Assembly (NCBI GenBank): GCA_965227295.1
Contig: OZ245742.1
Coordinates: forward strand, 2,176,001 to 2,240,000
DNA length: 64,000 bases
Direction: 5' to 3'
Origin: Leptonemataceae bacterium
GTDB taxonomy: Bacteria > Spirochaetota > Leptospiria > Leptospirales > Leptonemataceae
Of this stretch, positions 24,057-44,138 are shown piece by piece. Each line of letters opens with the position of its first letter. The stretch's first letter is position 1. The position numbers were made by a program, and so were the translations under genes. The notes under the pieces are model-generated. The model did not search any database. It was given only the letters and a program-made list of their open reading frames with translations, and had not been told where the DNA came from.

Positions 24057-24959
24057 TTAGCGTGTCCCTTCGTCTTCTATCGCTTCGCGGGATGCTTTCT
24101 TGTGATCAGCGTTCTGAAGGGTGGCGGAGAGCAAAGCGGGCGTGAGGATGTACCAGTCGTCCACCATTTTGGAGTCGTAAACAGAATCCTTGGGGTACTT
24201 GCGGTTCCATTCAATGCCTGCCGATATATCTTTAGCCGGGGCAATTGTTAAAATATTACTGTGGATGGATTTTGCAAACTTTGTACGAAAGTGCTCTTTG
24301 CCTTTGGGCCTGCCGCCTGTCGTTTTTATCTCCTCAAACAAGCAAGAACAAAAGCGCGCCGAGTCGATATTCGGATCTTCCGATTCACCGAAAACCTTCA
24401 AGATTATTTCGTCCGGCTTGTCCGTATCTACGCCTGACCAGGCCTTGCGTTGCGGGTCGTTTGTTTCGATCCAGGTCTTTAGGTCATCAATTCTCTTATT
24501 GATTTCTGTGCCGGACTCAATAGACTCCCCGCCCTCAGGGAGTTCACCCGGCAACGCATTTATACCGTTTAATTGAACGAAACGTTCTCGCTGTCGATTG
24601 TATTCTTTCGAGATGAAATATCGCCGTGCCGTGCAGCTGTTCTTTTCATCAACATTCGCATTCAGATAAAACGCGCCACCCTCTTTGGGTTCTCGTGTTG
24701 CTCCTTCCAGCACGACCCTTCGCAGCGGGTCCTCGCGCAGGCTTTCCGGAAGCCAGTTCAAAATGCGCGGGTCGTCCCCCGTAACCTCAGTTCCTGATCT
24801 CCACGCGTTACCTTTGGCCTTCAGCGCCGCGATGAACGCATCGATCAGTTTCTTGTAAGCATCCGCGGAATCCGAAGCCTCTTTGACCTTCCCATAGAAA
24901 ATCTCCGTATCCGCTTTCGGATCCCCGTCAAACGCAAAACAATCTTTCAACGCCATCAC
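24057..24959 (-). CDS. Hypothetical protein, last gene of the 20-kb operon (candidate second cargo or immunity/accessory protein)
   Basis: 300 aa, charged, no signal peptide; start overlaps the upstream stop (TGATG at 24954-24958); looks more AT-rich than flanks. Confidence 0.7.
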   Translation of the reverse strand: MMALKDCFAFDGDPKADTEIFYGKVKEASDSADAYKKLIDAFIAALKAKGNAWRSGTEVTGDDPRILNWLPESLREDPLRRVVLEGATREPKEGGAFYLNANVDEKNSCTARRYFISKEYNRQRERFVQLNGINALPGELPEGGESIESGTEINKRIDDLKTWIETNDPQRKAWSGVDTDKPDEIILKVFGESEDPNIDSARFCSCLFEEIKTTGGRPKGKEHFRTKFAKSIHSNILTIAPAKDISAGIEWNRKYPKDSVYDSKMVDDWYILTPALLSATLQNADHKKASREAIEDEGTR

Positions 24960-43400: not shown

Positions 43401-44138
43401 ACCGTTAAGTTTTTCCCGCGACATGCTGGTGTCGGAGGAAGTGAGTTCAGGGATAATCGTGCGGAGCAGGTCATCTTCCTGCTCGGAATTCCAGCCAATC
43501 ACCGAATATTTGAGATCATCACCTGCCTGGCCTTCCGGGTCGTAAAAACCAAAAACGCCGGCGCAATTCGGATAGAACGAAGAAAAGTTAATACCACCGT
43601 AACCCAATACGGTGAGGGGTTTGCCGTTGTTAAGTTTCTTGAAGCTATCGCCGGGTTGCGTGCCAGGATGACCGTATGCAGTTTTGCGACCCATGTACCT
43701 GTACGGCCGTTGCTTTGCCCCCGCGTGCGGAATGACACAGACCGGCTCGTCCGGGTCCACCTCTTCGGCGTGGACGAAGTCGCTTTCAATCAGCCATTGT
43801 TGTTCGGCCAGGCCACCGCCGTTGCGCGCTACCAGCCATCTGTTCGGAGCCGCCGGATACGTACCGGGATGCGTTTGCAAATTGTTCGGGCCCGGTCTCC
43901 CGAGAAAGTGAGGAACGATGAAGTGCAAGTGCATACCCGGATGGAGTGGGAAGCCGGGATTCGCAAACGGGGCATGCACGATTCCGCGGCTGACAAAAGG
44001 CTGCTCGAAGAAAAAGTCCGTGGACGAATCGCTCCAGGGGAGGCGCGAGTAATCTCCGAGGGGCGGCGCGGCCTGCCGCAGAGTCTTTAAGCAGAGTCCT
44101 TCGATTCGAAGGGGAACAATAATCCTGGATTCTTGCAT
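40494..44138 (-). CDS. Uncharacterised core protein A of DUF6603-type locus (1214 aa)
   Basis: Motifs GMHLHF, PAAPNRWLV, WLIESD, FSSFYPNC.GVFGFYD, LPPRLSQPARLNFRW, PVCGWL, GRPMAVVR, PIRLG..NDGLVGY, DPRG.VHATTGLLP recalled from DUF6603-neighbour proteins (unverified); no signal peptide. Confidence 0.7.
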   Translation of the reverse strand: MQESRIIVPLRIEGLCLKTLRQAAPPLGDYSRLPWSDSSTDFFFEQPFVSRGIVHAPFANPGFPLHPGMHLHFIVPHFLGRPGPNNLQTHPGTYPAAPNRWLVARNGGGLAEQQWLIESDFVHAEEVDPDEPVCVIPHAGAKQRPYRYMGRKTAYGHPGTQPGDSFKKLNNGKPLTVLGYGGINFSSFYPNCAGVFGFYDPEGQAGDDLKYSVIGWNSEQEDDLLRTIIPELTSSDTSMSREKLNGKLRNLFKLQLEVPDAEPWPLRKFRTLFFGEIQADASPPTERSKLQVSVGNTGTEALSALLADKMSNGKPERSTHKNLFESQLESILLHSGLEHHTIDVGPKFHEARHRQGFRAVTAGQLWKITTHHPDHIDAPAADQPELPSELAGPLQSLNMAQMMFDRSERKLITLRHQLYADWYRYMHARYPGIEGRGVFPDADHIQYFIETHSFAELEATIESTGIINGYDETNNFRPRIDKTGKADRANAVLNAWQRVSDLISLENERRRHHKASSFLALTMIDGPRYWEPRAPVLMIAGLDPANAESDGPPGDQYLTCPIIAFVGEADPVPADIADLREKVRHRIQPSQLSQQAWNPFLLDWEMDLVDTDLRHAGGAFEPDGLKRNVALAERGPDFEQRPEYVAGRLSVFSGSVIMSSHARQSLRRHIRSLIEISLKKDHIKFTDHHGIDDFLRARSEDVPALLHPDVLWEADPTRNPLETARLAYQKLDEMHVVSQTLNGFHHACIMLKKVAQLPVEEPIGFAAAKAFTGQVRELVANRRDSSPLPAFDFNPIRSGGLKLNRLRLIDNFGLIHDIDPTVTGLVAAETLRDGSKRDKPFLPPRLSQPARLNFRWLSAHPVSADVDEYADHVDFHTTNDHPDTSPVCGWLMADYLDNSVAVFSAAGTALGSIKADGTWDTPPWSERAPDLAGDITNPYLFNTVSRLTGSKTFLEAFLSATQNALEHIAPTNAHLFDTKWILMGRPMAVVRATISFELCGLPAMDQSWPALLADLHNCDAGAPWTYAKRYRRNWTAVKFPIRLGEHAQLNDGLVGYWIEDAYGGLGDPFFAPETSAIAGEDPRIDATGHQTRWRSPDDAPLNVTMLVDPRGVVHATTGLLPTKVISIPASHYLPVLRKFGLWFRTTPLLQPAPLPNAVAPGPLVLNTPAVSGFRWQWFDPRYGVRDLRTDDEKEHNHLESELVGGWLLLTQDRQ

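Follow-up and report, generated by a model that had tools for sequence, protein, structure and literature searches.

What is the purpose of a seven-gene operon that fills 20 kb of a Leptonemataceae bacterium genome? The stretch analyzed, called the window here, is 64,000 nucleotides long (assembly GCA_965227295.1, contig OZ245742.1, positions 2,176,001 to 2,240,000). An earlier note, made from the letters alone, had described seven co-oriented, tightly packed open reading frames (ORFs) and had proposed that they encode a toxin-delivery particle. We confirmed the seven, named A, F1, F2, N, B, C and O, on the minus strand at window positions 24057-44138. The gaps between the longest ORFs, from A to O, are -31, 25, 27, -62, 3 and -4 nt; with the likelier internal ATG starts of F1 (40467), B (31966), C (26935) and O (24956), all neighbors lie less than 30 nt apart or overlap. 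On balance we think it somewhat more probable than its opposite that the operon encodes a non-contractile, multi-protein, lysis-released effector-delivery complex of the polymorphic kind. The computed evidence is a fixed A-F-B-C core, a variable enzyme gene abutting the 5' end of B, a lack of export signals, joint exchange of the enzyme with 5' B, and a predicted B-C interface. We infer the remaining parts of this reading: lysis-dependent release, binding of the cargo, passage through the membrane, toxicity, the particle and the type of target.

The core consists of four genes: A, a fibre gene F, the DUF6603 protein gene B, and C. GTDB genomes were scanned with an alignment of C, giving at least 606 pattern matches, at least 583 of them confirmed; the 79 loci retained are the best-scoring, not a random sample. 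They come from Bacteroidota, Cyanobacteriota, Acidobacteriota, Chloroflexota, Myxococcota, Pseudomonadota, Actinomycetota and Verrucomicrobia. C is immediately preceded by B in 68 of the 71 loci with at least 1.5 kb of upstream sequence. Where at least 9.9 kb was available upstream (55 loci), F was found in 48, A in 34 and one or the other in 54. A was found in 48 of the 49 C-bearing genomes searched, which account for 50 of the 79 loci. In 29 of 31 loci whose coordinates were matched by hand, it sits on the strand of C, 7.6-14.3 kb upstream; A is downstream of C in one of the other two and probably on another contig in the last. The earlier note's expectation that A, B and C co-occur across diverse bacteria is therefore borne out, and its three-protein core stands for these genes but must be widened to include the fibre. 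The commonest gene order is A-F-slot-B-C, with the slot occupied by the enzyme gene, and permutations exist. One variant, F-A-N-B-C with a long N-family cargo, was seen in metagenome loci L085-L091, L093 and L094.

The cassette can occur more than once in a genome. Our genome has a second full copy at C1:5289962-5303896, in the order C-A-F-MBL enzyme-B (L003 9963-19338, L004 4347-8897). Its core proteins share just 26-31% identity with those of the window, implying that it was probably acquired separately. Two intact cassettes are also present in Herpetosiphon aurantiacus DSM 785 (L022, L057), a non-pathogen available in culture. An apparent 1877-aa C fusion in L056 was rejected as a wrong-frame ORF call, and an A/C fusion in L046 was not counted, the locus being fragmented. 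A GH25 lysozyme gene, possibly encoding a release enzyme, lies directly 3' of C in L011:12075-12878, L017:12299-13087 and L029:13114-15036; two of these loci are close relatives of the window cassette.

None of the proteins appears built for classical export. By a simple hydrophobicity rule, none of the seven window ORFs has a signal-like N terminus, in line with the earlier note, and across the relatives signal-like starts were found in 0 of 219 core and slot proteins, versus 47 of 168 flanking proteins.

The slot directly upstream of B holds enzymes of many kinds. A Pfam scan of 69 candidates found 15 MBL, 4 subtilase, 3 EEP, 3 DUF4135 and 2 M14 proteins, together with single examples of an Anthrax_toxA-type cyclase, ADPrib_exo_Tox, Gln_deamidase_2 and Lipase_3; the others are 4 fibres, 3 unrelated neighbors and 31 unnamed proteins. 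DUF4135, a LanM-like kinase, occupies the slot in L029:1822-5908, as two genes in tandem, and in L042:947-5257. In 39 of 45 loci the slot gene is poorer in GC than 3' B; in the window, N is at 0.525 and O at 0.505, versus 0.598 for the genome. Together with the fibre scan described below, the variety of slot enzymes bears out the claim of variable fibre and cargo positions. The combination of a constant, putative trafficking part with diverse exchanged enzyme domains is the one by which polymorphic toxins are recognized (PMC3482391). An adjacent immunity gene after the toxin, their other hallmark, was not found: in 41 of 45 loci the cargo and B are separated by 150 nt or less, too short a space for one. 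Many PVC-type systems likewise have no adjacent immunity gene, according to the same paper.

The slot gene does not move alone. We examined 8 pairs of loci. In three of them, chosen for close DUF6603 domains (L037/L074, L018/L019 and L028/L036), F, and likewise the stretch of 3' B plus C, share 84-90% DNA identity, and the cargo gene and the first 1.5-2.4 kb of B cannot be aligned. L036/L049 shows the converse: the cargo family and the whole of B align, and F and C diverge. In relatives, then, the first 500-800 aa of B move together with the cargo gene. A statistical comparison of 46 loci, in which 788 of the 1035 pairs could be used and kin are not independent, points the same way: pairs with the same cargo have a B N-terminal identity about 0.09 higher, DUF6603 identity allowed for (permutation p 0.001), and the B C-terminal domain shows no cargo effect (p 0.6). 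The nearest neighbor carries the same cargo family in 27 of 34 cases when chosen by the B N terminus and in 9 of 34 when chosen by DUF6603. What is exchanged is the enzyme gene together with 5' B. Cargo docking on a uniform chassis, as first proposed, is thus abandoned: the cargo travels instead with the N-terminal half of B.

What kind of protein is B? It is encoded at 26957..32029 (1690 aa, likely start 31966) and is a clear member of Pfam DUF6603 (PF20248), a family without assigned function (385.8 bits against a curated cut-off of 27), as the earlier note had suspected. The DUF6603 domain (27434..28918, E 3.6e-115) is predicted to form an amphipathic beta-meander. The N-terminal half (29030..31966) is made of repeats of about 110 aa, the family-alignment profile matching itself at a probability of 97-98%. 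The fold was modeled with AlphaFold2 on the paralogue in the same genome (residues 318-1516; 51 sequences, pLDDT 80, pTM 0.57). In this model B is a continuous beta-meander of about 50 strands with one short helix per repeat, and 33 of 47 scored strands have one hydrophobic and one polar face. Fold searches returned generic sheets: porins (Z up to 13.6, root-mean-square deviation (rmsd) 13-15 A), LptD, ApoB100 in a very poor Foldseek match (E 4e-6, TM 0.11, rmsd 42 A), and weak matches of RHS type (YenB/teneurin; E about 1e-3, TM about 0.07). An outer-membrane barrel was considered and rejected, because B has no signal peptide and the family is present in Chloroflexota and Actinomycetota. Indeed, by the same hydrophobicity rule, neither a signal-like hydrophobic start nor an N-terminal transmembrane anchor was found in any of 50 full-length B proteins. 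There is also a longer DUF6603 subtype (3100-3600 aa; P0334-P0449) with a distinct N-terminal region and, in some members, a PGAP1-type hydrolase match; it may belong to a different gene set. There were no fungal names among the 120 long DUF6603 relatives listed, no search aimed at fungi having been made.

The C-terminal domain of B (residues 1506-1690, 26957..27514) is predicted to bind C through strand pairing. The predicted complex has an ipSAE of 0.80, the best of 3 controls reaching 0.00; the mark set for this score is reached by 116 of 157 solved pairs and 2 of 215 mismatched pairs. At least 80% of the contacts agree between runs, the partners have a pLDDT of at least 64, and strand 25-34 of C pairs with residues 1588-1596 of B. 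At the level of a model, this agrees with the complex formation that the earlier note expected. No complex like it was found by sequence in the PDB. Natural fusions occur among the 120 long relatives listed: B-C in P0330 and P0331, and MBL-B in P0377 and P0333.

The association of enzyme and B is also seen away from the cassette. At C1:2266558-2272178 on the minus strand of our genome (L109:8559-14179), an EEP enzyme gene is followed by a gene (C1:2266558-2270907) for a B-like protein of 1447 aa, which has the N-terminal repeats of B, has no DUF6603 domain, and ends in 11-residue amphipathic repeats. Searches of 51 genomes turned up relatives of this B3-type gene in 6. Each of the 8 loci has a co-oriented, enzyme-like gene directly before the B-like one: Pfam assigns 4 of these neighbors to EEP and 1 to MBL, 1 resembles EEP by eye, and 2 are unnamed. 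Neither A nor C was found nearby (0 of 8 loci), and a LamG protein follows in 3 of 8. The C termini of the B3-type proteins consist of amphipathic helical repeats, and 4 of the 7 scanned show apolipoprotein matches below threshold. This architecture supports the enzyme-B unit, and the EEP and B3-type pair looks like a second undescribed system. A more specific, tentative version of the delivery reading, less likely than not, is a new class of protein delivery machine in which B, as a lipid-bridge-like beta-groove, serves as cargo-specific carrier and membrane-crossing conduit, its N-terminal repeats swapped together with the enzyme and its C terminus fitting interchangeable back ends. The back end would be either the hub of C, A and fibre or, in the B3 type, apolipoprotein-like helices with a lectin partner.

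The same properties of slot and B allow an alternative, unlikely in our judgment though the likeliest of the rivals, namely an external platform for digestion or scavenging. Its fibres would tether to prey, biofilm or debris, the enzyme would act outside with nothing translocated, and B would be a lipid-carrying groove, like a bridge-like lipid transfer protein or an ApoB belt, taking up or solubilizing released lipid. The named slot proteins are mostly hydrolases; B is a long amphipathic sheet whose top Foldseek match, though very poor, is ApoB100; and the apolipoprotein matches of the B3-type helical ends, sub-threshold as they are, suit such a role. However, ADP-ribosyltransferase, cyclase, deamidase and LanM-like kinase families need cytoplasmic substrates, and they occupy the same slot. 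The fast exchange of unrelated enzymes suits conflict more than feeding, and the N domain is also found on an eCIS-type toxin protein (L106, described below).

The fibres indicate where the complex might act. F1 (38407..40524, 705 aa, likely start 40467) has a conserved N-terminal region, a repeat shaft and a Collar tip (PF07484, residues 571-617, E 3e-8), and its PHROG tail-fibre matches are confined to the tip. F2 (34302..38381, 1359 aa) is its paralogue, with 36% identity across 477 aa; the Collar domain is again present (E 3e-6), as the earlier note had it for both fibres, and the N-terminal region is interrupted by a probable beta-propeller (Reg_prop, Pfam). F2 also contains 2.7 copies of a 128-aa (384-bp) repeat with 98% DNA identity (35190-36234), which represents either a recent shaft expansion or an assembly effect. 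The N-terminal region, about 340 aa (F1 residues ~20-365), is family-specific and was matched in 46 of 53 fibre proteins. In 50 fibres scanned, LamG occurs in 27, a Collar tip in 17 and a Peptidase_S74 chaperone tip in 10, and Collar and S74 never together. Our genome has 12 Collar-domain matches, several in genes of about 2000 aa.

Binding modules are not confined to the fibres. A (40494..44138, 1214 aa) has no named family, and in one scan of its longer relatives 5 of 25 carried lectin-type inserts (LamG, F5/8); a PA14 insert was also seen. One relative of C has an Ig domain. Taken together, the LamG, Collar and S74 fibres, the lectin-type inserts in A and the Ig domain in C point, by sequence, to an outward-facing, surface-binding assembly. 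Relatives of A form 2825 clusters at 50% identity (E ≤ 0.001). A has no match among PDB sequences, the profiles of A, B and C all lack one at E ≤ 0.1, a profile comparison of A with C gave no homology (probability 0.9%), and the ESM Atlas holds only unnamed clusters for A and B. In Microscillaceae, one A protein of about 4250 aa carries an unnamed C-terminal extension of 2700 aa (L042:12127-21561, P0174). C (24956..26953, 665 aa, likely start 26935) was modeled as an alpha/beta protein with Ig-like sandwiches (pLDDT 73). The model has no Foldseek match at E ≤ 0.001 in the PDB or the BFVD viral library, its best structural match is to generic Ig folds (Z 5.8), and C thus seems, as modeled, to have no clear known fold.

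These binding modules bear directly on a further alternative, improbable in our view, that the complex works inside the producing cell in anti-phage defence or programmed cell death, sensing a phage part and then releasing or activating a nuclease or lipase. That export signals were not found is consistent with this, as is the patchy spread of the cassette, which was not found in 60 relatives searched. Among defence effectors, nucleases, MBL and EEP enzymes are common, and all are slot enzyme types. Yet the modules seen in the cassettes, Collar and S74 fibres together with LamG, F5/8, PA14, ricin and Ig inserts, face outward and serve binding.

The cargo of the window cassette, N (31968..34274, 768 aa), probably carries a His-Me (NucA-like) nuclease domain. 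Residues 500-745 have at least 133 relatives, and H582, N596, N605 and E612, in the predicted catalytic segment (32415..32552), are invariant across 53 aligned relatives. PMC3482391 tabulates the Tox-NucA signature as 'GH, N, N, E', which N fits with C replacing G; the nuclease-like cargo claimed from the outset is upheld to the extent of this motif. Members of the N family match PF13930 weakly (5 of 20, best E 0.0016; not N itself), and N has no PDB sequence match. In a reciprocal scan of 25 metagenome loci with N relatives, several of them near-duplicates, the gene stands immediately upstream of B in 12 and beside A in 3, and 4 loci were too short. One N relative comes from Candidatus Amoebophilus. 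At L106:5454-10496, a stand-alone protein of 1681 aa combines eCIS_core (DUF4157), an N-family domain and a Macro domain; DUF4157 is a marker of toxins of extracellular contractile injection systems (eCIS; PMC8213781).

O (24057..24959, 300 aa), which the earlier note took for an orphan, is apparently the broken remains of a second such gene. It aligns with residues 5-242 of long members of the N family (E 4e-11; family hidden Markov model (HMM) E 7e-9, from a two-sequence search). An out-of-frame remnant of the N-family C-terminal subdomain follows at 23810..24076 (tblastn E 2e-9; family HMM E 1e-32, also from a two-sequence search). On this evidence O and the out-of-frame piece are a broken paralogue of the N cargo with the catalytic segment missing. 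Contigs from two public runs of one study equal the window with zero differences where they cover it (X1, which may be the source of the window, spans 23500-34300 entirely; X2 has holes and includes 23500-26131), and the remnant has identical letters in both.

Cargo shared with eCIS proteins is consistent with another alternative, to which we assign slightly less probability than to intracellular conflict: that the operon is an accessory of a contractile injection system encoded elsewhere, providing cargo loading or fibres in trans. Our genome has three eCIS-type sheath-plus-tube loci, near C1 1.58, 2.80 and 5.72 Mb, and a search of 49 genomes with a cassette found PF04984 matches in 38. Against this, at least about 0.4 Mb separates the eCIS-like loci from either cassette, the F-specific domain is restricted in this genome to the two cassettes with none at the eCIS loci, and 11 of the 49 genomes have no sheath match (some are incomplete, and T6SS, or type VI secretion, sheaths were not searched). 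A decayed prophage or tail remnant without system-level function, suggested by phage-type fibre tips, one broken gene and a fragmented relative locus (L075), is very improbable and largely refuted by conservation, since the gene order is intact across many phyla, no DUF6603 relative was found in a viral contig scan and A, B and C match no phage family.

We therefore return to effector delivery, for which the following sequence of events can be proposed. The complex would assemble in the cytoplasm and leave by lysis or a non-classical route. Trimeric F fibres on a hub of A and C, together with lectin inserts in A and F, would bind glycans on the target surface. The one-faced hydrophobic sheet of B would hold its cognate enzyme N-terminally and may shield the producer. 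On contact, the B sheet might engage the target membrane and pass the enzyme inside; this is the weakest step, and we doubt that its exact route is as drawn. In the window cassette, the NucA-like nuclease would then cut target DNA or RNA. Eukaryotic microbes are likelier targets than bacteria.

Several observations weigh against effector delivery. No pore-forming or translocation domain was found, and lipase, EEP, MBL, subtilase and carboxypeptidase enzymes could act outside without translocation. Recombination between two conserved anchors would explain the co-travel of cargo and 5' B without binding. The window B is one of the 7 exceptions in the neighbor analysis, not grouping with other N-carrying Bs, and 2 of 6 labeled B3-type genes with EEP cargo carry an MBL-type N terminus. 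N itself has no Pfam family match, 31 of 69 slot candidates are unnamed, and 6 of 25 N-family loci have no core genes. The window has no lysis gene, and a GH25 lysozyme follows C in just 3 of 18 downstream genes scanned. The C-terminal motif of N resembles a classical nuclear-localisation signal; the idea was rejected, the motif occurring in 1 of 53 slot proteins against a shuffle mean of 1.7. Finally, 38 of 49 cassette genomes, and ours, have phage-sheath genes elsewhere.

How does the proposed complex compare with known delivery systems? It is akin in logic to Tc toxins, eCIS and umbrella toxins, and by sequence falls outside all three. With Tc toxins and RHS/YD effectors (PMC6868009, PMC7861908, PMC8765631) it would share non-contractile multi-protein delivery, an exchangeable enzyme, a long beta-sheet protein beside that enzyme and binding to glycan receptors. 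However, none of the seven proteins matches TcA, TcB (SpvB) or RHS/YD families in Pfam, the enzyme is a separate upstream gene rather than a C-terminal tip, the B sheet has a hydrophobic face, and targeting would rely on phage-type trimeric fibres. The descriptions of eCIS, PVC and Afp (PMC8213781, PMC12923769) include fibres that join a conserved N-terminal anchor to Collar, S74 or lectin parts that vary, effectors of many kinds that lack signal peptides and mostly have no immunity gene, and similar environmental hosts; the N domain on a DUF4157 protein is a further likeness. Unlike eCIS, tailocins and T6SS, the cassette locus has no sheath, tube, VgrG/spike, baseplate or ATPase families. The search for sheath, tube, baseplate, VgrG, RHS, capsid and integrase families covered the seven ORFs and 43 other window ORFs (not all small ORFs) and found none, as the earlier note had reported; no ATPase family of eCIS type was found at the locus (Pfam, PHROG), and neither baseplate nor tube is among the listed fold-search matches of the C and B models. 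A, N, C and O have no matches at all in Pfam, PHROG or NCBIfam.

With the Streptomyces umbrella toxins (PMC11062931) the cassette, known from genes alone, would have in common a soluble polymorphic toxin particle that is made of several proteins and bears variable lectin tips, but it has no ALF repeats, no twin-arginine translocation (TAT) signal, no coiled-coil stalk with fused toxin and no adjacent immunity gene. B recalls AsmA-like and repeating beta-groove (RBG) proteins such as TamB, YhdP and VPS13 (PMC13542527) in its predicted long amphipathic beta-meander, built of repeats that each include a short helix; it differs in having no N-terminal transmembrane anchor and in being paired with enzymes and fibres, and none of these proteins is among the listed fold-search matches of B. 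Distinctness from phage, eCIS and Tc particles, as the earlier note claimed, is therefore supported for C by sequence and fold and for B by sequence, its fold giving only generic beta-sheet matches, and for A by sequence alone. Its overall interpretation is partly supported. We found no literature naming DUF6603 or PF20248 or describing such a system, subscription journals lying mostly outside the search.

The genomic setting suggests an independently transcribed, imported unit. A GC-rich hairpin with a T run (44340..44380, minus strand) can be seen in the sequence 3' of the upstream glutamine synthetase gene (glnA, Pfam), so that the operon is probably driven by a separate promoter within 44139-44340; on its other side lies an Lcl-domain gene that has a promoter-like site of its own. 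A search of 60 relatives found neither DUF6603 nor C, so that horizontal acquisition of the cassette is probable. Around the operon, at window positions 3221-7448 and 20347-23770, is a cluster of surface-type repeat proteins (DUF6242/EPTP-like, lactonase propeller, FG-GAP, Lcl) that are not linked to it in relatives, and an Lsa25-like protein is encoded nearby.

If effector delivery is the correct explanation, hundreds of environmental bacteria in many phyla would carry an unrecognized means of delivering enzymes to other cells, with machinery built from folds that have no solved counterpart. DUF6603 and two large unnamed families would gain a function, and a pool of unnamed effector enzymes would be exposed, given the 31 of 69 slot candidates without a Pfam family. 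B would then be a beta-groove protein working in conflict rather than in housekeeping.

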